DNA of 64,000 bases, from positions 53,709 to 117,708 of the forward strand of contig CALRJF020000011.1 of NCBI GenBank assembly GCA_943367425.1, read 5' to 3'. Of the stretch, positions 14,338 through 36,371 are shown one piece after another. Positions within the stretch are counted from its first letter, which is position 1. Each line of letters opens with the position of its first letter. Below the pieces are notes generated by a model that had not been told where the DNA came from, made no database searches, and saw only the letters and a program-made list of their open reading frames with translations. Made by a program: the position numbers and the translations under genes. The stretch comes from Candidatus Sulfopaludibacter sp. SbA3. Lineage in GTDB: Bacteria > Cyanobacteriota > Cyanobacteriia > PCC-6307 > Cyanobiaceae.

Positions 14338-15480
14338 ATGCCCAAAACTGCCCTGATCACCGGCATCACGGGCCAGGACGGCAGCTATCTCGCTGAACTG
14401 CTGCTGGAGAAGGGCTATGTGGTGCATGGCATCAAGCGGCGGGCCAGCAGCTTCAACACCCATCGGATCGATCACCTGTATCAGGATCCCCACGAGAGTG
14501 ATCCGCGGCTGGTGCTGCACTACGGCGATCTCACCGACAGCACCAATTTGATCCGCATCGTGCAGCAGGTGCAGCCCGATGAGATCTACAACCTCGGCGC
14601 CCAGAGCCATGTGGCGGTGAGCTTCGAGAGCCCGGAATACACCGCCAACAGCGATGCCCTGGGGACGCTTCGCATCCTGGAAGCTGTGAGAATTCTTGGA
14701 CTCACAGAAAAGACCAGGATCTACCAGGCCAGCACCAGTGAGCTTTACGGACTGGTGCAGGAAATCCCCCAGAAGGAAACCACCCCCTTCTATCCGCGCA
14801 GCCCCTATGGGGTGGCGAAGATGTATGCCTACTGGATCACGGTGAACTACCGCGAGTCCTACGGGATGTATGCCTGCAATGGAATCCTTTTCAACCACGA
14901 AAGCCCCCGCCGCGGCGAAACCTTCGTGACCCGCAAGATCACCCGCGGCCTGGCCCGCATCGATGCCGGACTCGACGATTGCCTGTTCATGGGCAACCTC
15001 GATTCCCTGCGCGACTGGGGCCACGCCCGGGATTACGTGGAGATGCAGTGGCGGATGCTGCAGCAGGAGAACCCAGAGGATTTCGTGATCGCCACCGGCC
15101 GGCAGGAGAGCGTGCGACGGTTCATCGAACTGGCGGCCCGGGAGCTGGGCTGGGGCGGCATTGAATGGAGCGGTGAAGGGCTCCAGGAGCAGGGTCGTCG
15201 TGCCGGCAGCGATGAGGTGGTGGTGCGGATCGATCCGCGCTACTTCCGGCCGGCGGAAGTGGAAACGCTGCTGGGCGATCCCAGCAAGGCCCACGACAAG
15301 CTCGGCTGGACGCCTACCACAACCCTGGAGGAACTGGTGGCGGAGATGGTGGCGGCCGACAAGGAGGAGGCGAAGAAGGAGGCGTTACTGCGGCTAAAGG
15401 GCTTCAATGTGGTGGGCTCGATGGAGAACCCTCCCACCAATCCCCATTCCATGGAGCGCTCCAGGGGAGGTCTTGGTTGA
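14338..15480 (+). CDS. gmd: GDP-mannose 4,6-dehydratase
   Basis: [67 protein letters not shown]. Confidence 0.98.
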
Positions 15481-16034
15481 TGGCTGCACCCGACAACGGG
15501 AAGATGATTATGCTCAATGATCAGATCTGCGTTGCGTGCCATCGGAGAATAGTCGGTAGCAACATCTATCGTGCAATGCCAATAAAGAGACACGCGCGTA
15601 TCTTGTCTGCGCCAACCCAAGAACCACTAGTTCCAAAGAATGAGCAGAAGACAAAGGAGAGAGAGATTCCCACACATGAAATCAATATGGATTCCCTTCG
15701 GATCCTCAATGCAAACATCAACTCTCATGCCGGTCTATGCAAATTTGTCAAAAACGCTGCTATGTCTTTTCGATATACGACAAAGATTCGGGCAGATGAA
15801 AAAAAGCTTTGGGAATTAGCGAATATTCAGCCAGGCGCAATATGCCCCAAAGTTCTAGGCGAATTTCCCATCTTGACTTCCAATAACTTAGTTGCGGCAA
15901 TCAATTTTACTCCAAGAAAAACCAGAAGACTGCAAAGAATAATTAGATTTCTTCATGCCAAGTTGCAACAGAGAAATTATTCAATGGCCCCATCGCCACG
16001 TTACTTACCATGGCTTCACCCAGAACACTTGTAG
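15477..16034 (+). pseudogene. highly diverged, truncated GDP-L-fucose synthase (fcl)-derived ORF
   Basis: Directly after gmd. DQICVACHRRIVGSNIYRAM resembles Fcl DxIFVAGHRGMxGSAIVRAL. AICPK..FPI resembles SCIYPK..QPI at the expected distance. Ends in HPEH. Catalytic YxxxK not recognisable. Confidence 0.65.
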
Positions 16035-16091
16035 GTCCATGCACCCGCAAGCCGTCTTCCAAAGACTTATCACACCCAATGAACCTCAAAG

Positions 16092-18068
16092 ATGACCAAG
16101 AGCAACGTATTCAAAATTGTAACTCCTACACGAAATTCCGAATTAACACTTGACAAAACCATAAGGAGCATTCTATGCCAAGACTTCGAAGGAAAAATAA
16201 GATATCACATACAAGACTGCTTATCATCTGATGGCACAATTGATATCGCTCAAAAATGGAAAGAGACACTTCAAGAAAACGGAAACTTTCTTGGGAATGC
16301 TTCTGTAGAAATCTCAATTGACAGTCGTGGCGACAAAGGCATGTATGATGCAATAAATCATGGCTTTCATCAGTTAGGGATTAACGAAGACGAGGATGCA
16401 TGGCTGACATGGATCAACTCAGATGACATCATGTGCAAATATGCCTTAAAAGTTGTCGATAAGATATCGCACTCCAGCAAATCTACTAGATGGATTGGAG
16501 GAAGTGCAGCAGTGATGATAAATGACATTCCAGTTTCAATTAACGAAAGAAGATTATGCTCAGATTTCTTACGAGAAGGTCTGGCAGATGGAATGTTTTG
16601 TGATTTTGTTCAGCAGGAGGGTACATTCTTCAAGCAAAGTTTGTACAAAGATGCCGGAAAAGGCAACGCCTTTGGGGGGCTCAGATATGCAGGTGACTGG
16701 AATCTATGGAGAATGTTTGCCTATAGGGCCGAGATAATACAGGTTAAGTGCTTACCCCTCGCCTACTTTGTTATATCCAACAATCAACTAAGCAAGACCT
16801 TCAGAGAAAAGTACAATGACGAAATAGCTAGCAAGATTTCCATAGACAAACGAAGGACCGCAGCAGAGTCACTACTTGACAAGAACCTCATCTTTTATCA
16901 GGCTCATTTTCAGTGGGACACATCGGATGTTTCGATAACCAAGAGTTATGACAGCATCCCATTCAGAGAATCAGCTTTTCGGTGCAGCTATGTCCATAAC
17001 GAATCCAATGCACATCTGCCAAGACCAACGGATACGAGCGACAAAATAGACAATATTAGCGGTCCTATATTGCGTAGTCAGAATATACTAGTATTCAAGT
17101 CGCATTGGCAATATCCTGCCATAACAGAAAAGAAGGCAGCACAGCTGTCCATTAGGGTGCTTCATGGGTTTGAGCATGTTGGCTACATTGGCTTTCCCTG
17201 GGCATCACTCATTGATTTATTGAATGCAGGCAAGCCTGAAGCACAAGACTTGCTATTAATACTACAAGCTGGCATTAAAGACTTCAAGAATGAATACAAG
17301 CGGATTTTTTCAGTTTGCCAGCACATACACGCATTGAGATACCCAAATCTATTTATAGATGCAGGAATAACTGATTTGTTTTGGAGCCACCTTGCCAAGA
17401 GGAAATATACTACTAAGTTTAAACTGCATCCATTTCCACTTTATGCTGTTAATTATAGTCAAGAATGGAAAAAATGGCATCAAAGGGCTTATGACGTAAA
17501 CTTTGTAGGAGCTCAAGCAGCCAATTGGTACATGACGCAAACCCGGAATTATATTCTCACTGAGCTAGAGGCATCTGAAAGATGCGTTATCACTGGCAAT
17601 CTTGAATGGTTCTTTAATGATGTCGTTTATAAAAAGCAGATATCTGGCGATAGTCAAGCAGCTGATGACGACAATCAGAAGGCGAAAGCCGCTTCCTTTG
17701 CTAAGCTTCTAGGTGAATCTGTGTTTACTCTTTGTCCGTCGGGGACTGGTCCAAATACGTTAAGACTGTGGGAAGCAATTGCGAGCGGCTCAATACCAAT
17801 TATTTTATCTGATCAATGGAGAGTACCTGGTGATTTTGCTTACTGGAATCAAGCATGTATATTCTTGCCTGATAGCATGGAGGGAGTGCGCCAAATTGCA
17901 CCTTTGATTCGTAGCTTATTCTTGAATCCCAGAAAAATAGCAAAGATGCAGGAGTCGCTTAAGGACCTTTTTCTCCTATACGGCCCTGATACGTTCATTA
18001 GCGATATATATATGGCGGCTTCCCGCTATGACAACATTCTTTGCTCACTTGATTCAAACAAGTATTAG
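16092..18068 (+). CDS. GT2 + exostosin (GT47)-like fused glycosyltransferase
   Basis: N-terminal IVTPTRNSE, IQDCLSSDGT, GMYDAINHGF, WINSDD (GT2). C-terminal FTLCPSGTGPNTLRLWEAIASGSIPIILSD (exostosin motif). AT-rich. Confidence 0.85.
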   Translation: MTKSNVFKIVTPTRNSELTLDKTIRSILCQDFEGKIRYHIQDCLSSDGTIDIAQKWKETLQENGNFLGNASVEISIDSRGDKGMYDAINHGFHQLGINEDEDAWLTWINSDDIMCKYALKVVDKISHSSKSTRWIGGSAAVMINDIPVSINERRLCSDFLREGLADGMFCDFVQQEGTFFKQSLYKDAGKGNAFGGLRYAGDWNLWRMFAYRAEIIQVKCLPLAYFVISNNQLSKTFREKYNDEIASKISIDKRRTAAESLLDKNLIFYQAHFQWDTSDVSITKSYDSIPFRESAFRCSYVHNESNAHLPRPTDTSDKIDNISGPILRSQNILVFKSHWQYPAITEKKAAQLSIRVLHGFEHVGYIGFPWASLIDLLNAGKPEAQDLLLILQAGIKDFKNEYKRIFSVCQHIHALRYPNLFIDAGITDLFWSHLAKRKYTTKFKLHPFPLYAVNYSQEWKKWHQRAYDVNFVGAQAANWYMTQTRNYILTELEASERCVITGNLEWFFNDVVYKKQISGDSQAADDDNQKAKAASFAKLLGESVFTLCPSGTGPNTLRLWEAIASGSIPIILSDQWRVPGDFAYWNQACIFLPDSMEGVRQIAPLIRSLFLNPRKIAKMQESLKDLFLLYGPDTFISDIYMAASRYDNILCSLDSNKY

Positions 18069-18073
18069 TCCAT

Positions 18074-19108
18074 ATGTCTTCTTCTGCAAGACCAAGAATA
18101 CATCTTCTTGGCAAGCACTGCCACCGAACCCCTTTTGCCTACAGGCTCTACAGGCATCTTCTCTCACGGTACTTTGAGTATAGAGATTCGATCTTTGATG
18201 CAGACTTCATCATTCTAGGTTTTTCGCGAGACATTGCAGAGAATTGCTTTCAAATCAGCAAGGCATTAGAAAGAAATCAGAAAGCCAAGTTGATCGTCAT
18301 ATCAGAGGAGCCACTCTGGGTCACTATGTGGAGTGAACATAAAAGCAATAACGCAACCACTATCCTGCGAGATTCATCATCTGGAATTGAATATTTTCAA
18401 CTTTCATGTCTTAATTCCGATTTATTCGCAGATCTACCGGTTCCATACTTTATAACGACTGAAGAAAAATATCTGGCGAGATACTCTACACTTCTATCGC
18501 GAAACACAACCCTTTCGACCAAGGATGTGGTGGATATATGGACTCAGTGTAAATACAAATATGCATATATCGGAGAAAAGCGTCAAGAAGCAATGAGCGT
18601 GCCAGATCAGTCGAATCCGCACGGTTATCCATTGTCAACCTACCGAACTCTCCTAGCAGAACATGTTAAGTCAGAAAAGCTAGTTCACGGATTAGGCTGG
18701 AAATCTGAGCGTACACCTCGCCAAGCGCTACCTGATTGGCATCTCAATAAGTTAAGCACACTGCACGCTTCAAGTCCATACATTTCAGCAATAGAGAATA
18801 CATATGTCAGCTCATATGTCACAGAAAAACCCTTTGATGCTTTGGCTTCTTTAGCAATACCTGTCGTTTGGGCACCAGATTGTTCAGAGCTCTATCACTT
18901 TATTCCCCAACAAGCTACTCTACAGCTCTATCCTCATAACCCGTCAGCTGCTGCCGAGTTGATCGACTCTTCAATACCATCGGAAGAACACGCAAGTATC
19001 CTAATTGACACTTCAAAACGCTTGCTATACAACAAGCTTACTCCACCACAAATAAACCAGTCTCGACGACAACTAGTCGATAGGTTGGTCAACTTTCTAT
19101 CTCTATAA
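18074..19108 (+). CDS. GT10 (alpha-1,3-fucosyltransferase)-like glycosyltransferase
   Basis: YISAIENTYVSSYVTEKPFDALASLAIPVVW matches the GT10 signature (F.ENS....Y.TEK...A.....PVV). Confidence 0.65.
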   Translation: MSSSARPRIHLLGKHCHRTPFAYRLYRHLLSRYFEYRDSIFDADFIILGFSRDIAENCFQISKALERNQKAKLIVISEEPLWVTMWSEHKSNNATTILRDSSSGIEYFQLSCLNSDLFADLPVPYFITTEEKYLARYSTLLSRNTTLSTKDVVDIWTQCKYKYAYIGEKRQEAMSVPDQSNPHGYPLSTYRTLLAEHVKSEKLVHGLGWKSERTPRQALPDWHLNKLSTLHASSPYISAIENTYVSSYVTEKPFDALASLAIPVVWAPDCSELYHFIPQQATLQLYPHNPSAAAELIDSSIPSEEHASILIDTSKRLLYNKLTPPQINQSRRQLVDRLVNFLSL

Positions 19109-19277
19109 AGACGCACATTAAGCTACTCCTTAATGTATCCACGATATGCAAATAGTGCAGCGACGGCGCCTTGACTATCAGCTCTATGGAGGCCAGAGCA
19201 ACTTAAACACATGGGCAATCAGCACAAGCCAGTTTATGCTGAGAAATGTGCTAACGTAAATCAGCTGTCTAAAAAAT

Positions 19278-19976
19278 ATGAATCTGGTGACATCTCATAA
19301 ACTTCCCATCAGCCTGCTCCCAGCTCCTCTTGGTCAAAATATCGCAACTTGGGCCATCCTAAATCCACAATTTAACCAAACTTATTTTGATGACTCCCAA
19401 ATGGAGTCTTGGATTAATGATAATTTATCGAAGCGGCTAATTAATGCATTCAAGCTTTTAAATACTGGAGCTGGCAAAGCCGACTTTTTCAGAATTGCTT
19501 TTATCAATAATTGCGGTGGCATATGGCATGACGCAGATTTACCCGCCTTTGATTTGCTGGCTCAAAGAAGTGACTTAATTGAAGTTTTAAAAAGCCATGA
19601 ATTGACACTAGTTCATAATCGCCATGGCGGGTTTAGGTATACCCTTATTGGCGGGCAGAGATCCTGTCTTTTATTGTCAGAGTTTTTAGACTACTTGGCT
19701 CAAGTTATTATAGACGAAAGCCTATGCCCTTCGGGCATAAAGACTATTGAGCTAACTGGGCCAATTTCTTTCATTCGCTTTTGTAATGACATCAAAGGCC
19801 TGAGCATTAAGTCCGGTGATGTATTTCGTCTTCTCAATCGAGAAATGATATGCATAAATGATATCGTCCCGGACAAAGGAGGCCAATCTGTTGAAAACAC
19901 AATTCCCGAGTATAGAAGATGCCTTGATGAAATGGGTGTTGAATACCATTACAACGCAAAAGCGACAATTGACTGA
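19278..19976 (+). CDS. GT32 (DxD sugar-binding) glycosyltransferase
   Basis: IATWAILNPQF..YFDD, KADFFRIAFINNCGGIWHDAD (GT32 D..R...L...GG.Y.D.D), LTGP. Confidence 0.8.
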   Translation: MNLVTSHKLPISLLPAPLGQNIATWAILNPQFNQTYFDDSQMESWINDNLSKRLINAFKLLNTGAGKADFFRIAFINNCGGIWHDADLPAFDLLAQRSDLIEVLKSHELTLVHNRHGGFRYTLIGGQRSCLLLSEFLDYLAQVIIDESLCPSGIKTIELTGPISFIRFCNDIKGLSIKSGDVFRLLNREMICINDIVPDKGGQSVENTIPEYRRCLDEMGVEYHYNAKATID

Positions 19977-20792
19977 GCCTTACAGACAGATCACTTGCAA
20001 ATACTGGGTTACTCTTGGAATATTGCGCAACAATTAACATGAAGCCGCAGTTATTGATCAAAATTTGAATTAAGGCAGGGCGAAGTCAGGAACTGCTTAG
20101 CCGTGGCGAAATTGGCTGTCTCCAAAAAGCTGGCGATGGGCAATGATGCTTCGCTGGGAATCGGTGGCTTCGTTGTAACAATAACCTGATTTCTCCCGCG
20201 GGCACGATCCCTAAAGTCTTCAACTGGCCCGCCTCTGCTGCTGCCGGTACTGCTTCCACTCTGGCGCATATGGTGTCAGTATCCTGGATTACATGGTCAG
20301 CCGCCGCAACAACAGCAGGATAGATGTTGCTGCTGATCGGCTCCAGTGGGCCCCCGCAGGATCCACCCAGATCTGACGCATCTGTTCGGCCAAAATGATA
20401 AGGTGGCCTTCGTGCAGATCAACTGTGGCGATTCAAAGCCAAGCAGCCCATCCAGGCAGTGTTGGGTCAGCTTAAAGAAATAGTCCTCAATGCTGCGTGC
20501 AATGACCCAGTACTTCTAAGGCTACAATTCGAGACAGAATCCACATTGGAGAGCCAACACCGCTGCTGAGGATGACTGGAACCAGAGAGCGCTAGATTCA
20601 CCCCGCCACCGAAGCGGTAGTCATAGGTCAGAAGTAATGTCGCAACCAGATGGATCGTCGGTACTCCAAAATTCGCCCCAATATGCTCCACAACTGGATT
20701 TGAAGGCAGATTCATTCAGGCCATCACCGCCGAAGCGGGAAATCAGATAGCGCCAACATTGCAGAGATACCTCCCCACTGGCCTTCCTAAAC

Positions 20793-21935
20793 GTGCCGGC
20801 TCCAGACACTGACACCGTTCGCCGCCTTTCTCTAGCTGGTGATCCCGCCGCGGCTCGTATTTTGTGGCGTCGTCTGGTCGCGGCAGCACCGAGTCTAGAT
20901 CCAGCACTCACCGTCCTCGGCGCCGAGCTTAGCTGGTCATTTGGGCACTTCAGCGAATGTCTTCCACAACTGGGATGCTTGCCCACAGTCGAGGACTGTC
21001 CCCTGGATATGTCCGATCTGTTCCCTAAGGGAACTGACCTCGCTAAGCGCCATGGCGGTGAAGAATGGCTGCATGCGCTCTGTAATCAACTGCGTATTCA
21101 CAAACAGATCCGGGCCGCCGAGCAATTGCGCCAACAGGTTGGCAAACCCTGGGCTGGCTTCGAGCCGGCAGTGGTGCGAACCCTGCACCATGTCGCTTGC
21201 AGCGGCGGCACTCTGATCAGTCGTTGTCTAGCGGCTCTGCCGGGCGTGGTCGTACTTAGCGAGCTGAATCCTACAAACCGTTACGGCCCAGCCTTTAACC
21301 CTAGCCATCCCCTAGGGTTGTATGCACTCCAGGCAGATCCTCTACCGCTGGAGGTGATAGAAGCCGAATTTGTCAGCCAGATCACGCAAGTGCTGGCCCT
21401 CTGCGAGACGCGCGGATCGGCCCTCGTGATCCGAGACCACAGCCATTCCGACTTTTTCCTCGGCACATCCGTGGCGCAGTTACAGCCCGTGCGGAATTGG
21501 TTGGCGCCTCGCCATCCCCTGCTTTCGGTTGTGACACTTAGACATCCGCTCGACAGCTGGCTCGGCCTGATAGCTGCCGGCTGGCATTCCCAACTGGAGC
21601 CTGCCAATTTGCGCTCCTACTGCAATCGCTACCAGGCCTTCCTCGACGCCTACGAAGACCTCGACTGGATCCACTACGAAAGCTTCTGCAGGCAACCAGA
21701 GCCCGTATTTCGTGAACTCTGCGATGTCCTTTGCCTTCCCTGCGACACAACAGCGCTTGATCGATTCGCCTCGATTAAGCTCAGTGGAGACAGCGGCCGA
21801 TGCTCCAGTCGCATCGAGTCGCGTCCTCGCCGAACCCTGCCCGAAGCAGTGCGCAAAGAACTTGCCGATCCCGCAACATCAGAGTCACTTCGGCAACTCT
21901 GCGGCCGGATGGGCTATCCAGCGAAGCTGGATTGA
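20793..21935 (+). CDS. sulfotransferase-like protein
   Basis: HHVACSGGTLISRCL..VLSELNP (5'-PAPS loop-like) and LRHPLDSWLG (3'-PB-like) in the C-terminal two thirds. Confidence 0.55.
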   Translation: MPAPDTDTVRRLSLAGDPAAARILWRRLVAAAPSLDPALTVLGAELSWSFGHFSECLPQLGCLPTVEDCPLDMSDLFPKGTDLAKRHGGEEWLHALCNQLRIHKQIRAAEQLRQQVGKPWAGFEPAVVRTLHHVACSGGTLISRCLAALPGVVVLSELNPTNRYGPAFNPSHPLGLYALQADPLPLEVIEAEFVSQITQVLALCETRGSALVIRDHSHSDFFLGTSVAQLQPVRNWLAPRHPLLSVVTLRHPLDSWLGLIAAGWHSQLEPANLRSYCNRYQAFLDAYEDLDWIHYESFCRQPEPVFRELCDVLCLPCDTTALDRFASIKLSGDSGRCSSRIESRPRRTLPEAVRKELADPATSESLRQLCGRMGYPAKLD

Positions 21936-21984: not shown

Positions 21985-22713
21985 CTAATGAACTTGGGCT
22001 TCGCGCTGGTCTTTGAAGTTGTGTTCCACCATAGTGCAGCGAAACAAGTAGCGTTTCGAATCGATAGCCTCAAGAATCGCAAGTTCGCTCCCTTCCGTGT
22101 CAATGCTCAGATAATCGATCTCCCGAGGTGACCATGCTTCCTGAAGCAGATCCATCGACGACATGGTGACCACGCTGGTCAGCTCTCCAGCCTCCGCAGA
22201 TGCCTCCCGTTTCTTGATGTGGCTGGTCATCTTGCCCCGCTGGCGTAGGCTCCCAAAGGCATCGACCAGCACGAACTCAAGGCTCTGCCCGCTGGTGGGA
22301 TACACACAGGCCGGGCTTCCCTGTCAATCCCGACTGCGTTGCACTTGCTCGAACAGCCTGGGGTTCGGCTCCCAGCAGATCCCCTTCCAGTCGATCATCT
22401 TTTCCATCAGCCAGCTGTTGCTCAGCAGCACACCACCAATCGCGCCAAAATCAACGAAGAATCCACCTTTTTCTCAACCTGTCTGCTCCAGCATCCACAG
22501 GTTCTGCCCTAGCTAGAAGAGGCTCCAGCGCTTCCACTCCTGCTTACCGAATTTCATGGCTGCTGTCCCCAATGTTCCAGCTTTCACCTGCAGGGCGCCG
22601 CTGGCTAGAGCCAGGCTCAGCTCATAGGAAAGCTGTTCCGCTTCCGTGCGCAGGATCGTCAGCTGGGCCAGCATCTGGTCGTGATCCTCCCCTCGCGGCT
22701 CCACCGAGTACAA
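21985..22713 (-). pseudogene. FkbM family methyltransferase pseudogene
   Basis: One frame reads SLF*LGQNLWMLEQTG*EKGGFFVDFGAIGGVLLSNSWLMEKMIDWKGICWEPNP...RSRD*...IDYLSIDTEGSE..VEHNF. In-frame stops at 22513-22515, 22474-22476 and 22324-22326. Confidence 0.85.
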
Positions 22714-22860: not shown

Positions 22861-23214
22861 TTTCTGGCATCCATCTCAAGGCGGGTGGGTCAGTATTCAT
22901 ATTGCCGCCGTGCTTCTGGTGCGCTGGGTGGTTGCGGCCGTTGATCGTGATGGGCATGGCGTCCTCGTCAATTCCGTAGGCGGGTCTTCCGATTCACTGG
23001 AAACCCTTGCAGCAGCTTGCTTCTACCGATAACCCTCGTCCTCGATCCCCGCGATGTGGCAGTGGTGCACCAGCCGGTCCAAAGCAGCCACGATCTTCGA
23101 TCCACTCGGGAAGATATCGTCCCACTCCCGGAACGGCTGGTTGGAGGTCACCAGGAACGATAACAGCCAGCGAATAGGAGGGTATCAGCAATTAAATATA
23201 TGCAGCAATTCCGC

Positions 23215-24453
23215 TCAATAGAGGTCAACCTCATTTTCGAACTCCTGGCTCAAAACATTTACAAGATTAAAACCCATGGCCTGAAAGAAAGCATCGATCG
23301 CTTGAATCTGCCCGTCATTTCCACCTGCAGCTTGTTCGCCCTTCCCTGAATTGAAGGCCTGCCAAAGCGATGCATTCGCATACCCCTTCGAGCCATCAGC
23401 AGTTGGAAAGGCCAGCTGGTTGGTGCGTGCCGCCGCATTGGGCTGCAGGATCACCGCCGGCGCACCCTCCATCGCCAGCAACCAATGCATCCACAGATCA
23501 TCAGCCGTGGGTGCCAGCACCAGGGCCGCTTCCAGGCACAGATCCTCCGGAAAATCTGACAGCCGATAGAGCACGCCACTCTGCCCCGTTGGCAGATTGC
23601 CGAGCCGCGGCTCCCGCAGACCATCGGGCCACTGCCCATAGGGCCGGAAGGCGCCATCGCCCACCAGCATCCTGCGGCCTCGATGGGCCACCCTGCAGTT
23701 GTACTTCCCGTAATTGCGGGTCAGATACTCCAGAAATCTCGGTGGATAGATCGTGTCGTCATCAACGGTGACGAACAACCGCTCGGCCTGTGGGCTGAGG
23801 TTGCCTGCAGCCCGGGCCTGGGCATCGGTGACGTAAGGGTGAAACTTTCTGTAGGGCCCCAGGTTGGGCGTCCACTGAATCTCCACACCGTCCAAGGCCG
23901 CCAGCTCCTGCACAACCTCGCAACCCGGATCAATTCCCGTATCCAGCAGATAGGGATCTTCCGAGAGATAGATCTTCACCGCCGCCGGCTTCAGGGTTTG
24001 CGCCAGCAGCGACCCCACCACCGCCTTCAACGTATGCAATCTGGAGGCAATGGCCGTGAGCACCACCTCCGGGCCCAGATCGAGCTCTGCAGCGGCCACT
24101 CCCGGTTCAGGTTGGCGACCCACACCGCTGAATCCCAGCAGATCAGCCAGCGCCTCATGGGCCAAGGCACCCAAGTCGTCGGCAGCGTCACCGAGTCCGA
24201 TGGCTCCACAGGCTTCGGCCAGGGAAAGCAGGCCGGAAGCCTTGATCGCCTGGCTGGTCTCGGCCGGCGTTGCGCCGAAGCCCCGGGCCATCTCCATGGA
24301 CAGAAAGGCGTTCGCCTGGTCGCCACCGCCCGGCCCGCTGACCTGGAGCAGGGCCACCCCATAGCGCAGCCACTCTCCCGGATCCGTGCTGGCCGGGTCG
24401 TGGGCCTGGATCAGCCCGGCCCAGTCGGCCTGTTGATGGGTCTGCAGCGTCAT
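23215..24453 (-). CDS. GT-A fold glycosyltransferase with unnamed N-terminal ~100-aa domain
   Basis: LTAIASRLHTL..VVGSLLAQT, NLGPYRK, VTVDDDTIYP (DxD), GQSGVLY, APTADDLW. ATG at 24453. Confidence 0.75.
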   Translation of the reverse strand: MTLQTHQQADWAGLIQAHDPASTDPGEWLRYGVALLQVSGPGGGDQANAFLSMEMARGFGATPAETSQAIKASGLLSLAEACGAIGLGDAADDLGALAHEALADLLGFSGVGRQPEPGVAAAELDLGPEVVLTAIASRLHTLKAVVGSLLAQTLKPAAVKIYLSEDPYLLDTGIDPGCEVVQELAALDGVEIQWTPNLGPYRKFHPYVTDAQARAAGNLSPQAERLFVTVDDDTIYPPRFLEYLTRNYGKYNCRVAHRGRRMLVGDGAFRPYGQWPDGLREPRLGNLPTGQSGVLYRLSDFPEDLCLEAALVLAPTADDLWMHWLLAMEGAPAVILQPNAAARTNQLAFPTADGSKGYANASLWQAFNSGKGEQAAGGNDGQIQAIDAFFQAMGFNLVNVLSQEFENEVDLY

Positions 24454-24460
24454 CGCCGTG

Positions 24461-25936
24461 TCACGCCGAAGTGAGGCGGGCCAGGGCCGCCTGGCGCAGA
24501 CCATGGTCGAACAGACCCGGTGCCGCCCGCTGCTCGCTTCTGCCCGGGGCGGGCAGGGGCACATTCAGACCCAGCCACTGCTGCAGCTCATACACGGAGA
24601 TCACCCGCACGCCGGCCGGCCGGCCTCCGCTTGCGATCGAGGGCGCCATCTGGCGCGCGAACACACCGCTGAGCAGGCAGCCGCCACTGAGGTCCCAGCG
24701 GCTGTAGCCCTCCCCTTCCAGCACCGTGCGGCAGGCCAGCTCGAGGGCCTCCTCCACGAACGGATGGCCGGCTCGGGCGGCGATCAGCTCCAGGCTGAGG
24801 CTGCCCCAGCCGTCCTGCACCAGCAGCAGATCCACCCCGTCAGCCAGCAGCGGGTCCAGTGGGGCCTGGCTGCGCACGTTCCAGTCGACCGAAACGCCGC
24901 CGTGCTGCCAGAGCAGGGCCAGGCGCAGCAGGTCGGAGCGCACGGCCGGATCCTTCAGGCAGGCGCAGGCCTCCCGCACCAGGAGCGGCAGCTGGCTCCG
25001 CCGATCGATCGCTTCGGGCTGGTGATCCAGCCACTCCAGATCCCATCCCGGCTGGTGACAGCGCCAGCGCTGCTCGCTGGCCGCCAGAGCCGGGCCGCCG
25101 TCGCCATGGCGGCGCAGCAGCCATAGGCGTCGGGGAATCGCGGCCGCCCCGTAGACCACCGGAGCCTTCAGGCCGATCCAGCCGGCGCGGCGCAGCCGCA
25201 GCAGCAACGCGAAGGCCAGCGCCGTGGCATTGGGCTCCTCCAGCAGGCGGCTGGCGATGGCCTGGCAGGCCGCCGCATCGGGCAGGGCCCGCAGGCCCTC
25301 CAACGCCCGCACGGCGGCGGGGTTCGCACCGATCTCCAGCCGCCACTGGCGCAGCGGTTCCGCCCCCACCCGTTGGCGCTCGGCGGGGTCATCGCTGGCC
25401 AGCAGCAGGACCCGGATCCGCTCCCGCAACGAGCGGGCCAGCACCAGGTCCCCATCCATCAATGCCAATCGCTCCGCCAGTTCCAGCGCCTCACGGCGGT
25501 GTGGCACGGGTTGATCGCCGGGGGCCAGGCGATCAAGCGCCAGGGCCAGGGCCGTGGCGGTGGCGAAGCGGTAGCGCTGCTGGGCCAGCCGCATCCCCTG
25601 GAGCATGCGCCAGCGGCTTTCGTCGTCGCTGCGGGCGGGCAGGGCTGCCAGGGCGCCGTCGGCGCCGGCATCGGCCATGAGCAACAACGCCCCGAAATGC
25701 ACCTTGCGCAGGTGATCCAGGGTCTGGGGTTCCGCATCCGGCCGGTCCGCCAGGAGCTGCCGGCTCAGCGCCGCCACGCGCGGTTGGTCGCGGCCGTGCT
25801 GGGCAAGCTCCAGCTCCAGCCACAGCAGATCGCGCCTGCCGGGATGCTCCTCCAGTTCACGCTGCAGGAGGGCCAGCCCCTCATCGATCAGGCCGTCTCG
25901 CTTGCAGTGATCGATGGCCTGGCGCAGCTCCTGCAC
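24461..25936 (-). CDS. TPR-like N-terminus + GT32 glycosyltransferase domain
   Basis: C-terminal IPRRLW, WRCHQPGWDLEWLD, RSDLLRLALLWQHGGVSVDWNV (GT32-like). Helical A/L/R-rich N-terminal half. Confidence 0.72.
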   Translation of the reverse strand: MQELRQAIDHCKRDGLIDEGLALLQRELEEHPGRRDLLWLELELAQHGRDQPRVAALSRQLLADRPDAEPQTLDHLRKVHFGALLLMADAGADGALAALPARSDDESRWRMLQGMRLAQQRYRFATATALALALDRLAPGDQPVPHRREALELAERLALMDGDLVLARSLRERIRVLLLASDDPAERQRVGAEPLRQWRLEIGANPAAVRALEGLRALPDAAACQAIASRLLEEPNATALAFALLLRLRRAGWIGLKAPVVYGAAAIPRRLWLLRRHGDGGPALAASEQRWRCHQPGWDLEWLDHQPEAIDRRSQLPLLVREACACLKDPAVRSDLLRLALLWQHGGVSVDWNVRSQAPLDPLLADGVDLLLVQDGWGSLSLELIAARAGHPFVEEALELACRTVLEGEGYSRWDLSGGCLLSGVFARQMAPSIASGGRPAGVRVISVYELQQWLGLNVPLPAPGRSEQRAAPGLFDHGLRQAALARLTSA

Positions 25937-25945
25937 CGCCGCAGA

Positions 25946-26875
25946 TCAGAGGCTCACGGAGGCCCTGGGTGCCGTTTCGTGGCGCTGGAGCAGCAGCCGC
26001 ACACTCGCAGGCAGCTGGCGGGCGAAGGGGATCCTGGGCAGATCAAGCTCCTCCATCGGGGCCGAGGCGCCATACAGGGCGAGGTAATCGTCATGGTTGT
26101 CCCAGCTGTCTCGGCTGAAACCATTGGTGCGGTAACTCGCGAAATAGCTTTCCGTCTGCATCCCATTGGCCCAGATCAGTTCATGCTGATCGAGTTCAAT
26201 GTTGAAGTAGGTGATCTCCTCAGCATCGAAGGCTTCGAGCTGGCTGATGGTGCTGCCGTTGAGAAGCGCGCCGACCTCCACCAGATGACCATCCAGGGCG
26301 ATGGCATGGCTGGGGCTCAGGAAGGTGTCGCGCTCAGGACCATGGGTTCCCAGCGCACCGGCGGCGATACGGATCGGCATCTTGCCGAAGCCCCGCAAGG
26401 TGTTGAGGTCGCGGCTGGAACGGGCCAGGAACTTCACCGGCCTAGGACCACCGGCCGTGGACACCAGATCGCCGACCGCCAGGGTCTCGATGGCACGGGG
26501 GCCGTCGGGGGTGCGGATCAGGGTGCCGGCAAGGAAGCAGACGGGGCTTGAGGCTGTCGCTCCTGTGATGAAGGAATAGGGGGTATTGATGGAGCCGCTG
26601 GTAGGCAAGCCGGTATTTCCGGCATAGAAATAGTTATTGCCTGACCTGACGATGATGCCGCCGTTGTAAGTACCCACGTAGGTGTAGGAATCATCTCCAT
26701 TGGAGACGATCTCACCAGGTGACAGCTGGGCGGAATCCGCATCGCTGCTGGCACCGACTTCTGACCAGGTGAAGGAACGATTGCCGGTGCGGTCTCTCGC
26801 TGCTTTGATCTTGTTGCCGCCGCTTGTAGAACTGATCTTTTGAAAGAAGCTATAGGTGACTGACTTGACAGCCAT
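25946..26875 (-). CDS. Hint (hedgehog/intein, Hint_2-type) domain protein
   Basis: PVCFLAGTLIRTPDGPRAIETLAVGDLV (block A, Cys113), LSPSHAI (block B His), YFNIELDQHELIWANGMQTES. Confidence 0.9.
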   Translation of the reverse strand: MAVKSVTYSFFQKISSTSGGNKIKAARDRTGNRSFTWSEVGASSDADSAQLSPGEIVSNGDDSYTYVGTYNGGIIVRSGNNYFYAGNTGLPTSGSINTPYSFITGATASSPVCFLAGTLIRTPDGPRAIETLAVGDLVSTAGGPRPVKFLARSSRDLNTLRGFGKMPIRIAAGALGTHGPERDTFLSPSHAIALDGHLVEVGALLNGSTISQLEAFDAEEITYFNIELDQHELIWANGMQTESYFASYRTNGFSRDSWDNHDDYLALYGASAPMEELDLPRIPFARQLPASVRLLLQRHETAPRASVSL

Positions 26876-27367: not shown

Positions 27368-29227
27368 ATGACCAAAAAGCTTGCCATTGTGATCTCCGGA
27401 GCCGTGTCGCTCGGGAGTTATGAAGCCGGAGTGATGTATGAGGTGCTCGAAGCCATCGCCCTGCATAACGAGTCGCTTCCTGAAAAACACCCTGATCGTG
27501 TGGTGATCGATGTGATCACCGGCGCGTCCGCTGGTGCCATGACAGCCGCCATCTTGAGCCAACAGCTCTATTTCGGTGGCAAGACATTGCGGCAACCCTA
27601 CGACGGCAACCCCCTGTTCGATGCCTGGGTCAAGCAGATCAACATCAAGGATCTCCTGGAGGTTAATGTCAATGAGCACAAGTATTCCTTGCTGAGCTCC
27701 GCCGTCATTGACGACATCGGCCAAAAGGCAATTCCCGATGACCCCGGCAAGCCCTTGGAGCCCCACCCGGCTTCAGGGAATACCCTGCAGCTTGGCATTG
27801 CGATGTCCAATCTCAATGGCTACAAACAGGAGATCCCAGGCTCCGGAAGCAACGAATCCTTCGCCTACTCCCGCTACAAAGACCAGTTCGTCTGCCGATT
27901 GCAGCGCCTGCCGGCGAAGACTGATCAGCCCGATTCCCGCCATCCCAGGCCTGCCGAGACTCTCCATCTGTCGGAAATGGAACCTCGCATGAAGGGACGC
28001 AAGGTGGTATGGCGGCCGATGCACAACACCTGCAACTGGGGAATTCTTCGGATGATGGCGTTGTCCTCAGGAGCCTTTCCCTTTGCTTTCCGGGCACGGC
28101 GCATCGTCCGATCCGGGGGGTCAGACAAGAGCATGATGGCCACCAGGGACAGCGGTCGTAAATCCTCTGCCGGCGACCAACTCTATGGCGGCAACTATCT
28201 GTATACCGACGGCGGCGTTTTCGAAAACGAGCCCGTAGGGATGGCTGTCAACCTCATCGAGGCCATCGGTGCAGAGCATCAGGATCCCAACCGAAGTTAC
28301 CTTTTCGTTGCCCCCGGCAAACGAACGATCGATGCCGATCCGTTCTTCAATACGGAGGATGATCTTCTCGCGATGGCGACCGGGCTGATCAGTGCCATCT
28401 TCGGCCAGTCCCGATTTCAGCAATGGGTTACCGAGGGCCTCACAGGCCAGTTACTCACCGTCACCGCCACCGAAGCCTCTCTGGTTGGCGATACGTTCTC
28501 GGCCTTTGGCGGCTTTCTGGAGTATGAGTTTCTAGCCCATGATTACAACATCGGCCGCTGCAATGCACGCCAGAAGCTTCGCGATGGAAGTTTCGATCAT
28601 CTGATCAAGAACTACAAATCCATTGACGCTTTGATGCCGAAGGTTGAATGGCCGAAGAAGTGCCATGGTCAACCGGGCAGTCTTCCACCTGACTCCACGT
28701 TTCCAGCCCTTCAGGCCCGTTCCCGCAGCCAGGAACAAAAAACAGACGGCTATGGCGAGTATGAAACAGATGCCTGGAAGGCGGCCCGAAAAAGGTTTGC
28801 ACCGCTGGCCAAGCCCAGATTCAAGCCAGGCAAGGGCCCTCGAAGGCGTGATCTGGGAGCGGAGCTGAGCATTCTCATGTGCGAAGTGGATCAATCGCGC
28901 CGCCAGCTGATTGCCAAACAGGTCCAGGCACGCGTCGATTCGCTGGTGGGCTTCATCCTCGGCAAAATCCTCAATCCAAAGCAGGCGAAGCGACGCTCTG
29001 TGCGTTTCGGGTTGCAGCTGGCTCTGGTGGTGCTCACGCCTTTCGCACAGATCGTGTTGAAGGCACTGATTTGTCCTGCCATCGCCACCTATATCCTCCA
29101 CCCCAGGCCTCCTGCCGAACCGCCCCCAGACGAGGCCTGCTGCGGCGCGGCAGACGACGAAGCACCATCCCCTGCGAAGACCATCGCATCCCCTGAGAAG
29201 AACATCGATGGTGGCGAGTCGCCTTGA
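27368..29227 (+). CDS. patatin-like phospholipase domain protein
   Basis: ISGAVSLGSYEAG (Gly-rich loop), TGASAG (GxSxG), SSGAFP, YTDGGVFENEP (DGG). Confidence 0.9.
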   Translation: MTKKLAIVISGAVSLGSYEAGVMYEVLEAIALHNESLPEKHPDRVVIDVITGASAGAMTAAILSQQLYFGGKTLRQPYDGNPLFDAWVKQINIKDLLEVNVNEHKYSLLSSAVIDDIGQKAIPDDPGKPLEPHPASGNTLQLGIAMSNLNGYKQEIPGSGSNESFAYSRYKDQFVCRLQRLPAKTDQPDSRHPRPAETLHLSEMEPRMKGRKVVWRPMHNTCNWGILRMMALSSGAFPFAFRARRIVRSGGSDKSMMATRDSGRKSSAGDQLYGGNYLYTDGGVFENEPVGMAVNLIEAIGAEHQDPNRSYLFVAPGKRTIDADPFFNTEDDLLAMATGLISAIFGQSRFQQWVTEGLTGQLLTVTATEASLVGDTFSAFGGFLEYEFLAHDYNIGRCNARQKLRDGSFDHLIKNYKSIDALMPKVEWPKKCHGQPGSLPPDSTFPALQARSRSQEQKTDGYGEYETDAWKAARKRFAPLAKPRFKPGKGPRRRDLGAELSILMCEVDQSRRQLIAKQVQARVDSLVGFILGKILNPKQAKRRSVRFGLQLALVVLTPFAQIVLKALICPAIATYILHPRPPAEPPPDEACCGAADDEAPSPAKTIASPEKNIDGGESP

Positions 29228-30069: not shown

Positions 30070-30314
30070 ATGGCCAGGACCACCCGAGCCCCTGCGGTCA
30101 AGTTGGTTGGCGCTAATGGACAAATTAGCCTCGGCAAGCCTTACGCCGGCCACCAGGTGTTGGTGGAAGAGCGCAAGCCCGGGTGTGGATCGTGCGCACC
30201 GTCACCGTGATCCCCGACAGCGAGCGCTGGCTGCACGAACCGAAGGCCGCCGACGCGCTCGAAGCCGCGATGGCCTGGTCGGCCAGCCAAGCGCCTGCTG
30301 ATGCCGTGCGATGA
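30070..30314 (+). pseudogene. frameshifted AbrB/MazE-like putative antitoxin
   Basis: MARTTRAPAVKLVGANGQISLGKPYAGHQVLVEERKPG continues in another frame as VWIVRTVTVIPDSERWLHEPKAADALEAAMAWSA. Adding one G at cccgggtgtgg (~30181) restores an ~81-aa ORF. Confidence 0.65.
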
Positions 30315-30412
30315 CGCGACGGCACCGTGGGCCAATCGTCTTGGGGCCACGGAAGCTGGACAAAGGCTCCCGATGTACCAGGCACGGCAAACCCTCGGGC
30401 TGAAGGCATCGC

Positions 30413-30757
30413 TCAGGTCCTGGTACCCAACAGCTTGCGCAGCTGGGACGCCACACCGGCACGATCGGCGGTGGCCAAAGAGCCCAGGCCCCCCGACACC
30501 AGCCGCTCATCAAGGGTGAACAACTTGAAGCGCACCAGGCAAGACTGGGGCAGACCTGCAGCCTGCAGATCTTCAAGGGGCCAATCGAGGGGCCACGAGG
30601 ATTGCCGCGCCGAGGTGATCATCGCCAGCAGCAGGTGGCCGCAACCACGCGGAAAGTCGGGCTGGGAAAGAACCACCGCTGGCCGCAGCTTCTGGGCCTG
30701 CCGATCCGTGAAGGGGAACGGCACCCGCACCACCGAGTACCTGTCGAAGTGGCTCAT
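30413..30757 (-). CDS. PemK/MazF family toxin
   Basis: VVRVPFPFTDRQAQKLRPAVVLS, LAMITSA, SCLVRFKLFTLD. Confidence 0.9.
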   Translation of the reverse strand: MSHFDRYSVVRVPFPFTDRQAQKLRPAVVLSQPDFPRGCGHLLLAMITSARQSSWPLDWPLEDLQAAGLPQSCLVRFKLFTLDERLVSGGLGSLATADRAGVASQLRKLLGTRT

Positions 30758-30978
30758 AGATCGCGGAACGCCTCCTCATCCTCCGGGCTGCTCCACTCGC
30801 TCAGGGTGCTCTCCAGCCCCTCCAGAAAGGCCAGATCCAACGGCGCCACGGCCCGCACGCGCACCGAGCCGTCCTCCAGCTCCCAACTGAGCTGATCGCC
30901 TTGCCGCAATCCCAGGGCCTCACGCACCGCCTTCGGCACCGTGACCTGTCCCTTGGCGGTAAGTGTGGCGACCTCCAT
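30754..30978 (-). CDS. AbrB/MazE/SpoVT family antitoxin
   Basis: MEVATLTAKGQVTVPKAVREALGLRQGDQLSW. 4-nt overlap with the toxin start. Confidence 0.92.
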   Translation of the reverse strand: MEVATLTAKGQVTVPKAVREALGLRQGDQLSWELEDGSVRVRAVAPLDLAFLEGLESTLSEWSSPEDEEAFRDL

Positions 30979-31355
30979 CGCTGGTAAACCAGTCACTGGA
31001 TCTCACCCTAGGCCGGATGTCTCCTTGTCGTAAGGCGTCCTTACGGGCTTGCGTCAAAGATGGGCCCCTGACCTCGCGGCAGAAGTTCTCCAACGAGAAG
31101 CCGAGATCTCTGTCTGAAAGGGCCTGAGCTCATCCACCGTGATCGGCTGCGGCTGATGTTGGCCATCGCCTAGCTGCTGCTCTCTCGGCAGGTGGATCGG
31201 GATGGCCGACCGAGGCCCATGAACAGACTCAGCCTTCGGCCTCGGGCAACAACGTGCTCGGCTCGAAGCCGCGGACCGGCACTGAACAATCCCTGGGCCT
31301 GAAGGCGATCCGGCCCCGGCAGCGGCGAAAGGCACACGGATACGGACCCTGAGCC

Positions 31356-34060: not shown

Positions 34061-34375
34061 CTACGCCCAACCGGCGAGGCGCCGCAGCGCCGCCGCCGAC
34101 GACCCCGCCCCGGCCAGCTCCAGGCCCTCCGCCAGGCTCAGCAGCGTCGCCTGCCGCTGGCTCAGGGCCACCTCCTCCTTCGGCGCCCCCAGCGCCTCGG
34201 CGTGGGCGAAGGCCAGCCCCGCCTGCTGCTGCTGCTGCCGCTCCAGGGCCGAGGGTTCGATCAGCTGGCTGAGGGCCACGCCGTAGCGCAGCCATGCGGC
34301 CGGCTCATGGCTCTCCAGCGGGTGGGCCGCCACCAGCGCCTCCCATGGCGCCTGTCTGCCGTCCCGATCGCTCAT
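34061..34375 (-). CDS. 104-aa hypothetical protein (standalone WLRYGVAL domain)
   Basis: ATGA overlap with the upstream gene at 34372-34375. Homologous to the N-terminus of the 23215..24453 protein. Confidence 0.75.
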   Translation of the reverse strand: MSDRDGRQAPWEALVAAHPLESHEPAAWLRYGVALSQLIEPSALERQQQQQAGLAFAHAEALGAPKEEVALSQRQATLLSLAEGLELAGAGSSAAALRRLAGWA

Positions 34376-36318: not shown

Positions 36319-36371
36319 GGCGGAGTGCACCAACGGGCCGAACGGCATAGGGTTCCGGCATCGATTCCAGC

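Follow-up and report, generated by a model that had tools for sequence, protein, structure and literature searches.

Gene organisation of the locus

Three adjacent genes lie on the minus strand of a 64,000-nt stretch of a contig assigned to Candidatus Sulfopaludibacter sp. SbA3, within a picocyanobacterial (Cyanobiaceae) lineage (CALRJF020000011.1, positions 53,709 to 117,708; hereafter the window, to which all coordinates without a locus number refer). The first gene (25946..26875, minus strand) encodes a 309-amino-acid protein from an ATG start, identified from open reading frame, Pfam, AlphaFold2 (AF2) and Foldseek analyses as a Hint_2 or type-B bacterial intein-like (BIL) precursor made of a cargo, a Hint domain and a tail. 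The second (24461..25936, minus strand), here called GT32L, encodes 491 amino acids from a GTG start, and the same four analyses point to a helical repeat joined to a GT-A domain resembling those of glycosyltransferase (GT) family 32. The third, G3 (23215..24453, minus strand), encodes 412 amino acids from an ATG at 24453 and combines a "w104-like" N-terminal domain with a KfiA-like GT-A domain. The gaps between them measure 9 nt (Hint gene/GT32L) and 7 nt (GT32L/G3), and the three same-strand reading frames are present exactly as the initial annotation of this DNA had claimed. They form a picocyanobacterial cassette built around a type-B BIL (Hint_2) precursor, in which a variable cargo, the Hint domain and a conserved 60-amino-acid tail follow one another, and the Hint gene of the cassette appears to be obligatorily paired with one specific gene, GT32L. 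The evidence for this cassette is all comparative or predicted.

The GTG start of GT32L agrees with its homologues in the alignment, and the ATG of G3 is the one called in L001, a 94%-identical relative (L and P numbers designate the loci compared here). None of the three proteins contains a hydrophobic signal or transmembrane stretch (top 19-residue Kyte-Doolittle mean 1.48). NCBIfam gave no matches for the Hint protein, GT32L or G3, Rfam and tRNA scans gave none either, and no record with the exact sequence of the Hint protein was found. Between 22.5 and 27.5 kb, promoter-like sites were absent, as were minus-strand terminator-like sites, their counts not rising above those of shuffled sequences. 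A reading of the locus as an anti-phage defence system was rejected; PADLOC models matched neither the trio nor two neighbours described below, the sulfotransferase-like w380 and a patatin-like protein.

The Hint precursor and its family

Hint domains catalyse an N-to-S acyl shift at a cysteine, after which the N-terminal segment is released or passed to a nucleophile (cholesterol in hedgehog). Residues 112-246 of the precursor match Pfam Hint_2 (PF13403; E=1e-33, 117 bits against a cut-off of 28.4), and Foldseek searches with the AF2 model retrieved inteins and the BIL domains 6tmm and 2lwy (E~1e-4). The model, with a mean predicted local distance difference test (pLDDT) of 86, comprises four parts. 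Residues 1-98 (26582..26875, minus strand) form a small, beta-rich, hypervariable cargo of eight predicted strands (block pLDDT 60-89), followed by a flexible linker, residues 99-112 (26540..26581, minus strand), which drops below a pLDDT of 50 at residues 105-110 and ends in ...ASSPV before the cleavage site. The Hint domain, residues 113-246 (26138..26539, minus strand), was delimited with Pfam and the alignment, is modelled with pLDDT above 90, and opens with Cys113 (codon TGC, 26537..26539, minus strand), the block-A nucleophile of the predicted scissile bond V112/C113. The C-terminal tail, residues 247-309 (25949..26137, minus strand; SWDN..Y..LYG...M.EL..PRIPFARQLP), lies beyond the Pfam Hint_2 model; it is predicted to form three helices (pLDDT 85-96), and its residues R255, N260, R286 and P289 are invariant.

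Two residues singled out by the initial annotation, Cys113 (codon 26539-26537) and the block-B His, were both found and are invariant across 68 homologues; the latter is His190 of the S187-P-S-H190 motif (codon 26308-26306). Further motifs of the domain are E227, H231 and A-N-G at 236-238. After A-N-G comes M-Q-T-E242-S-Y-F, with E242 invariant, and the intein block-G His-Asn and the C-flanking nucleophile are absent. Lacking the block-G His-Asn, the Hint domain therefore cannot splice; judging from the alignment, it keeps the residues for the N-to-S acyl shift at V112/Cys113. The N-segment (residues 1-112) is rich in Ser, Thr, Gly, Tyr and Asn, as the same annotation had stated (53%, against 27% in the remaining Hint protein), and has neither a signal peptide nor a hydrophobic stretch. 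Among GT-linked homologues, the residues preceding the Cys are mostly [ST]PV, PV or PI.

More than 276 homologue clusters make up the family, whose members have in common the invariant Cys1, (S/T)xxH, E227, H231, A-N-G and a strictly conserved tail of ~60 amino acids at the C-terminus, together with a hypervariable N-terminal part of ~110 amino acids. Searched by itself against 1.84 billion representative proteins, the tail yielded 118 matches, every one of them at the very C-terminal end. The Hint-tail module also ends proteins of 466 to 2822 amino acids within the same genomes, with five to six Hint-tail loci per single metagenome-assembled genome (MAG), and the N-terminal parts of these paralogues range from ~100 to 2800 amino acids and consist of unrelated domains. 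The giant paralogues carry LTD, Big_12/13, FG-GAP, Calx-beta and Exo_endo_phos domains, as is typical of extracellular proteins. At two of the loci that also hold GT32L (L048 and L049), the partner Hint proteins carry a ~450-amino-acid DUF4347 cargo in place of the beta domain.

These comparisons bear on the proposal, made in the initial annotation, that the N-segment is the precursor of a glycopeptide. Residues 1-112 could receive sugars and then be set free as a bioactive glycopeptide of small size, in the manner of a ribosomally synthesised and post-translationally modified peptide (RiPP), and the small size of the released part, its Ser/Thr/Gly/Tyr/Asn-rich composition, the lack of a signal peptide and the adjacent GT genes would all suit such a product. 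We nevertheless consider this very improbable: structure prediction makes the segment a folded beta domain of hypervariable sequence rather than a peptide, no conserved core or leader is present, and its place is taken by DUF4347 in L048 and L049 and by cargoes of 1300-2800 amino acids in paralogues. The 112-residue segment is therefore the shortest form of a variable cargo, and the term peptide precursor is unlikely to fit it. Nor does the trio have the neighbours of a glycocin-like cluster: no peptidase-ABC (ATP-binding cassette) exporter, no RiPP enzyme and no dedicated S/O-GT of the GT2 type was seen adjacent to it, and ~13 kb separate it from the closest ABC transporter gene (40036-43086).

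Tandem duplicates of Hint-tail genes are frequent (L049 4650-9720, L054 1269-3599, L018, L027, L028, L035), and some copies look frameshifted or truncated (L049 7282-7972, L040 3889-4272, L023 8882-10611). Such duplication, together with decayed copies, suggests rapid turnover. Several MAG records titled "Chitinophaga pinensis" (L004, L005, L011, L020, L021, L037) carry Hint loci of picocyanobacterial type; their genes match Cyanobium/Prochlorococcaceae relatives and the label is thus probably wrong.

Conservation of the Hint/GT32L pairing

The gene context of GT32L could be read at 13 picocyanobacterial loci (the window, L001, L026, L042, L044, L046/L051, L048, L049, L052, L053, L054, L058 and the P0143 contig), which are related to one another, with GT32L identities of 43-93%, and do not represent fully independent events. 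A Hint_2 gene adjoins GT32L in 13/13 of them; it is co-directional and immediately upstream in 12, the exception being L026, where Hint and GT32L converge. At least five gene arrangements preserve the pairing: Hint, GT32L and G3 in series; Hint and GT32L with G3 convergent; G3 followed by Hint (two copies in some cases) and GT32L; Hint and GT32L convergent, then G3 twice, the first copy fused to GT47; and a sulfotransferase gene followed by DUF4347-Hint, a GT32L-GT4 fusion and w380. G3 itself has stayed next to the pair at most loci even though the genes were rearranged several times. One relative, L001 (Hint protein 94% identical), keeps the order of the trio in an island whose flanking content differs.

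Related gene pairs occur outside this subfamily. At two loci of proteobacterial type, a short Hint_2 gene is followed by a canonical gene of the tetratricopeptide repeat (TPR)-GT32 type, and then by a SulP/STAS sulfate permease gene in L034 (Muricoccus radiodurans) and by Sulfotransfer_3 in L033. Among picocyanobacteria, canonical TPR-GT32 genes are convergent with or near Hint genes in L040 and L002. In L023, a DUF4347-FG-GAP-Hint gene is followed by a TPR-GT41 gene.

One alternative is that the Hint gene and the GT genes have no functional link, being co-resident in a glycan island with incidentally short gaps. Many Hint-tail paralogues do lie beside unrelated housekeeping genes (uvrB, secretin, glnE, fpg, nitrite/sulfite reductase, sulP), and GT genes are numerous elsewhere in the island too. 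Set against this are the 13/13 adjacency seen from the GT32L side, which holds over identities of 43-93% and in five or more arrangements, and its cross-phylum echo in L033 and L034. For a gene picked at random, the chance of having a Hint gene no more than 2.5 kb away is ~0.02 per locus, a rough value assuming ~10 paralogues in a 3-Mb genome. We thus give the absence of a functional link next to no credence, and the comparison of loci indicates that the trio is a conserved functional neighbourhood, not a chance adjacency. Absence of linkage between Hint homologues and GT genes elsewhere had been named as a condition that would refute the initial annotation, and the comparison does not refute it: viewed from GT32L the linkage is present at all 13 loci. 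It is not general when viewed from the Hint side, where most paralogues are GT-less.

A sulfate theme beside Hint_2 genes was noticed outside the subfamily (L033 9635-14665, L034 9848-16619, L009 238-8950); in L009 the gene of a giant Hint protein is followed by SulP/STAS.

GT32L, a GT32-like protein with a degenerate DXD motif

GT32L reaches 23.7 bits with Pfam Gly_transf_sug (PF04488), for which the cut-off is 23.0, and its homologues score from none to 28 bits; Pfam detected no TPR match in the protein. Its AF2 model (pLDDT 92.8) contains a helical repeat at residues 1-250 and a GT-A domain at 268-470. The repeat (25187..25936, minus strand) is modelled as a 15-helix, TPR-like alpha-solenoid, which Foldseek pairs with the TPR domains of OGT, SPY, KLC1 and BamD. 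The best Foldseek matches of the protein are YeGT, Och1 (GT32; 9n3s, E=2e-4), SetA and PaToxG, so that its predicted fold resembles that of Och1 and of the protein-glycosylating toxins YeGT, SetA and PaToxG. In alignments with canonical TPR-GT32 proteins (23-29% identity), the solenoid falls between their TPRs and their GT domain, and the tblastn alignment with the L040 protein covers residues 1-473. The designation TPR-GT32 used in the initial annotation is marginal by Pfam and confirmed by the fold (AF2, Foldseek); a point that this annotation had missed is that the DXD motif is degenerate.

The motif, located by alignment with canonical relatives that show D-A-D within GG.Y.D-A-D, reads D351-W-N353 in the window (24878..24886, minus strand), and across the Hint-linked subfamily the position is occupied by DWN, EAH, EAN, EPH, DWC, EWN or DFG. 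The activity of GT32L is therefore uncertain, and conventional Mn-dependent transfer appears doubtful from its sequence. The motifs GYSRWDLSG, HGGVAV, RGDLLRLA and WLDH of the pocket are strongly conserved, and a functional pocket is likely on this basis.

Homologues of GT32L fall into 25 clusters, all picocyanobacterial, and a metagenome scan with the GT32L profile found six loci. One locus is of particular structure: L048 (5777-8338; P0124) encodes an 853-amino-acid GT32L with a C-terminal GT1/GT4-like domain (weak Pfam matches), and the catalytic domain of G3 is absent there.

G3 and the neighbouring glycan genes

No Pfam family matched G3. A profile of eight homologues, searched against the PDB, retrieved KfiA, the heparosan N-acetylglucosamine (GlcNAc) transferase (5z8b; E=1.2e-5 over ~100 residues including the DXD), and weakly PmHS2, which bears out the GT-A assignment that the initial annotation had given to the third gene. 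The DXD motif, D231-D-D233 (23755..23763, minus strand), lies in a TVDDDT sequence invariant in the eight homologues, and from these features G3 looks active. The N-terminal ~90 amino acids form a separable domain that is also encoded alone, at 34061-34375 in the window, in L023 (just upstream of the Hint gene) and in L048. G3 homologues are commoner than those of GT32L.

The genes recurring around the cassette belong to families associated with glycans. On the plus strand of the window, at 16092..18068, Pfam identified a GT2 and GT47 (exostosin-like) glycosyltransferase within a block of 41% GC, and relatives of its GT47 lie beside the cassette, according to tblastn, in L001, L026 (fused to G3), L042 and L054 and, according to Pfam, in L058. 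Hepar_II_III_C genes occur near the cassette in L026, L046 and the P0143 contig, the last of which also has a UDP-glucose dehydrogenase gene near it. Nearer to G3, though outside the coordinates given in the initial annotation, w380 (20793..21935, plus strand) is a recurrent fourth neighbour of the cassette and encodes 380 amino acids without a Pfam match and with the sulfotransferase-like motifs ACSGGTLIS and LRHPLDSW; its homologues occur in L042 (70%), in L044 (68%, directly after G3) and in L048 (45%, directly after GT32L). The w380 profile weakly matched the CurM sulfotransferase (E=0.005) and TPST1 (E=0.02) in the PDB, and this weak evidence suggests a sulfotransferase. L026 (2336-5236, plus strand) encodes a 966-amino-acid fusion of GT47 and the KfiA-like G3, downstream of which come another G3 gene and one of the heparinase II/III-like type, a layout reminiscent of bifunctional heparan polymerases. 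Taken together, the family names of these neighbours suggest a polymer of the glucuronic acid (GlcA)/GlcNAc type, possibly sulfated.

Such a glycan raises a second way of connecting the Hint protein to its neighbours. As in hedgehog, the Cys113 thioester could be attacked by a hydroxyl or amine, here of a sugar, so that Val112 would become joined to a heparosan-like glycan or to a lipid-linked precursor made with G3 and GT47, while the DXD-less GT32L, the tail, or both would act as an adduct-recognition element presenting the acceptor. The precursor has the same succession of cargo, Hint and conserved structured C-terminal region as Hog proteins, where Hint is followed by the sterol or adduct recognition region (SRR/ARR; PMC2362128, PMC7765530). 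A conserved pocket with a lost DXD would suit sugar binding without transfer, and the pair nearly always adjoins glycan genes able to function alone. On the other hand, cleavage is the sole activity of the type-B BILs that have been characterised to date (PMC4031507). All paralogues have the tail, including many that are GT-less, and hence it is not specific to a glycan adduct; its likeness to the SRR is one of layout, and the topology is awkward, the GTs being cytoplasmic and the cargo extracellular. We regard this route as unlikely. Its most specific form, a glycan-adduct counterpart of hedgehog in which the thioester is attacked by a sugar belonging either to a heparosan-like polymer carrying sulfate or to its lipid-linked primer, with formation of a covalent protein-glycosaminoglycan conjugate, seems to us quite improbable. 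If true, it would amount to a bacterial "proteoglycan" showing hypervariable domains on the picocyanobacterial surface, and type-B BIL domains would gain a general role as self-contained C-terminal ligases. Passing of the thioester to a sugar would moreover represent a natural way of ligating proteins that is new and of interest to biotechnology, and with glycan transfer the cassette would come nearer to a new kind of system.

The surrounding island

The window has ~70% GC and contains an island of lower GC at ~14-31 kb, which is a surface-glycan island. Homologues and sequencing-run metadata assign the DNA to a freshwater picocyanobacterium (Cyanobium/Prochlorococcaceae) sampled in a metagenome of lake water. 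Its genes include those for a GDP-mannose dehydratase, DUF6880 and Uma2 proteins and a 977-amino-acid GT2+GT1 protein. The block of 41% GC mentioned above spans 15400-20200 and was probably acquired horizontally; besides the GT2 and GT47 gene it contains a GT10 fucosyltransferase-like gene (18074-19108) and a small canonical GT32 gene with an intact DXD (19278-19976). Directly downstream of G3, the C-terminal end of an IstB helper ATPase of the IS21 family survives as a remnant (23020-23190, minus strand; …TSNQPFREWDDIFPSGSKIVAALDRLVHHCHIAGIEDEGYR*), which shows that mobile elements were once active where the cassette ends. Between w380 and G3, a 106-amino-acid fragment (21985-22305, minus strand), comprising only the C-terminal part of an FkbM-type methyltransferase, is probably a pseudogene remnant.

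On the other side, divergent from the Hint gene, a patatin-like phospholipase of 619 amino acids is encoded at 27368-29227 (plus strand); L001 lacks the gene at the corresponding place, and PADLOC does not match it, so that it probably lies outside the cassette. Frames for an AbrB/MazE-like antitoxin and a MazF/PemK-like toxin follow at 30300-31000 (minus strand), and the syntenic island in L001, L046 and L056 is dense with toxin-antitoxin (TA) modules (PIN, RHH, MazEF, ParE, Zeta). Further on, a gene for a 658-amino-acid protein without a Pfam match (34372-36348, minus strand) precedes that of the 104-amino-acid homologue of the G3 N-terminal domain (34061-34375, minus strand); the two are kept as a pair in L001, and the 658-amino-acid protein is also kept in Cyanobium sp. 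NS01. Elsewhere in the window, at 9097-11289 (minus strand), a 730-amino-acid protein combines an animal-haem-peroxidase domain with two peptidoglycan-binding domains.

A tentative role for the cassette

The explanation that we favour, giving it somewhat less than an even chance, is that GT32L couples the precursor to the heparosan-like glycan pathway, the cargo or the linker being glycosylated before or around export and cleavage following. GT32L would recognise the precursor in the cytoplasm through its helical-repeat domain and would either add a priming sugar itself or recruit G3, or the fused GT4-like domain, to act on the cargo or linker. The precursor would then leave the cell by a non-Sec route, a thioester would form at Cys113 of the Hint domain, and the cargo would be set free from the Hint-tail module, the product being a glycan-decorated, hypervariable protein domain, secreted or held at the surface. 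Glycosylation is favoured because TPR-GT architectures are typically protein-directed, because L048 encodes a GT32L-GT4 fusion without G3, and because other TPR-GT families adjoin Hint genes. The extracellular-type domains of the giant paralogues speak for a cargo bound for the outside of the cell. The cargo varies (beta domain or DUF4347) while GT32L is conserved, which points to recognition of the linker, the Hint domain or the tail. A hypervariable cargo, many paralogues and an island of glycan genes, TA modules and insertion sequence (IS) remnants point to cell-surface variation.

Several observations weigh against this explanation. The second Asp of the DXD is lost in every GT32L member and the QxW motif (IP..xQxW) near the start of the GT domain is replaced by IPRRLWLLRR, so that GT32L may be inactive or of altered chemistry. 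G3 looks like a polysaccharide-type rather than a protein-directed enzyme, and Cyanobium sp. NS01 has, in the same island, G3 and a heparinase II/III-like gene with no Hint or GT32L gene. Being found without either, G3 is part of a glycan pathway and therefore not dedicated to the Hint protein, which removes one of the two GTs that the initial annotation had assigned to this substrate; its resemblance to KfiA and PmHS2 argues in the same direction. Seen from the Hint side, most of 38 genome loci have housekeeping neighbours and most Hint-tail paralogues no GT neighbour, and GT-linked Hint modules do not form one clade in a neighbour-joining tree (no support values). In the cargo, hypervariable as it is, no acceptor site proved to be conserved. 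The Ser/Thr fraction of the 25 residues before Cys1 is 0.26 in GT-linked and 0.20 in unlinked homologues, a difference that was not convincing, and a Ser/Thr-enriched linker was rejected as a signature of GT linkage. No RNA runs containing the region were found, only DNA runs of lake metagenomes.

The loss of DXD and QxW in all members of GT32L is the starting point of a further alternative, in which it is a pseudo-glycosyltransferase serving as a chaperone, anti-cleavage factor or secretion adaptor that holds the Hint-tail module until export, with the glycan genes adjoining merely through a common hypervariable surface-glycan island. The partner is conserved while the cargo varies, and GT32L clusters are ~10 times rarer than Hint-tail clusters (25 against >276), a ratio compatible with one trans-acting factor for several paralogues. 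The island is moreover full of TA modules, IS remnants and GT blocks of foreign GC, as expected under this alternative. It accounts less well for the persistence of G3 beside the pair in most loci despite rearrangements, for the GT1/GT4-like domain fused to GT32L in L048, for the canonical DXD-intact TPR-GT32 genes that also adjoin Hint_2 genes, and for the strong conservation of the pocket motifs. We consider a purely non-catalytic GT32L rather unlikely, and retain glycosylation coupled to processing as our tentative preference.

Type-B BILs were described about two decades ago, and reviews still present them solely as modules that cleave within hypervariable proteins, without a biological role having been settled (PMC4031507, PMC7765530). 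The strictly conserved pairing with GT32L in clusters of the GlcA/GlcNAc type is a testable lead towards glycosylation-coupled or glycan-directed autoprocessing of a secreted cargo, and the cassette offers a first functional lead for this long-orphan class of bacterial intein-like domains. The recurrent set of GT47, KfiA-like, heparinase II/III-like and sulfotransferase-like genes is also a hint that cyanobacteria may make heparan-like polymers. Picocyanobacteria rank among the main primary producers of fresh waters, and the hypervariable islands that encode their surface glycans are believed to influence how they interact with phages and grazers; a device coupling proteins to glycans in such islands would bear on these interactions.

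Comparison with known systems

The closest described proteins are the type-B BILs (Amitai et al. 2003; Dassa et al. 2004), which cleave without splicing and occur in hypervariable, non-conserved proteins (PMC4031507, PMC7765530), and which are defined by the absence of both the block-G His-Asn and a C-flanking nucleophile (PMC4031507). The Hint protein has in common with them the Hint fold, the N-terminal Cys, the block-B (T/S)xxH and the lack of block-G His-Asn and +1 nucleophile, as well as hypervariable non-conserved hosts, multiple paralogues and an expected N-terminal autocleavage. Every defining feature that can be checked in its sequence is present, which places it among the type-B BIL/Hint_2 proteins. 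It differs from those described in the strictly conserved 60-amino-acid tail and, in a subset, in the pairing with a TPR-GT32-like gene within glycan clusters, neither of which is mentioned for type-B BILs in PMC4031507 or PMC7765530. The statement of the initial annotation that no described system has this layout accordingly stands for the cassette, in that no description of a BIL-B precursor with a DXD-less TPR-GT32-like protein and a KfiA-like GT in a glycosaminoglycan-like glycan cluster was found in the literature searched, but not for the Hint protein, which belongs to the described type-B BILs (PMC4031507, PMC7765530).

In polymorphic toxins, Hint acts as a releasing autoprotease, with the variable toxin C-terminal to it and an immunity gene next (PMC3417536). 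The variable part of our precursor is instead N-terminal, its tail is conserved and the next gene is GT-like; with the variable part on the wrong side and no immunity-like gene, a polymorphic-toxin Hint was rejected. Hedgehog and Hog proteins offer a closer analogy, with a variable N-terminal cargo, a Hint domain initiated by Cys, a short conserved C-terminal region, a cargo-Hint thioester and an extracellular cargo. The precursor described here differs in being bacterial and without a signal peptide, in having a GT-like protein rather than a sterol as partner, and in a tail whose likeness to the SRR/ARR is seen in its layout.

Heparosan and heparan synthesis (KfiA of GT45, PmHS2, exostosins with GT47+GT64, enzymes of the heparinase II/III fold, sulfotransferases) resembles the neighbourhood in that G3 is nearest to KfiA, that the cassette is repeatedly accompanied by genes for GT47, Hepar_II_III_C, sulfotransferase-like proteins and UDP-glucose dehydrogenase, and that the GT47-G3 fusion of L026 recalls the two-domain layout of exostosins. 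Differences are that no Kps-type export genes were seen and that a protein precursor is associated with the genes; such an association would be proteoglycan-like, and to our knowledge none has been described for bacteria.

Several adhesins are encoded with a dedicated cytoplasmic GT, as in HMW1A/HMW1C (GT41), TibA/TibC, AIDA-I/Aah and SRRP/GtfA-GtfB, where modification takes place in the cytoplasm before non-classical export and GtfB is a non-catalytic GT-like co-factor. The cassette would follow the same gene logic, the gene of a secreted or surface protein standing beside that of a dedicated GT, and is unlike these pairs in its GT32-like protein with a degenerate DXD, its self-cleaving Hint substrate and its heparosan-type companion GTs. 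By analogy, then, the cassette resembles Hog in layout and the adhesin-GT pairs in gene logic, and appears to be a member of neither.

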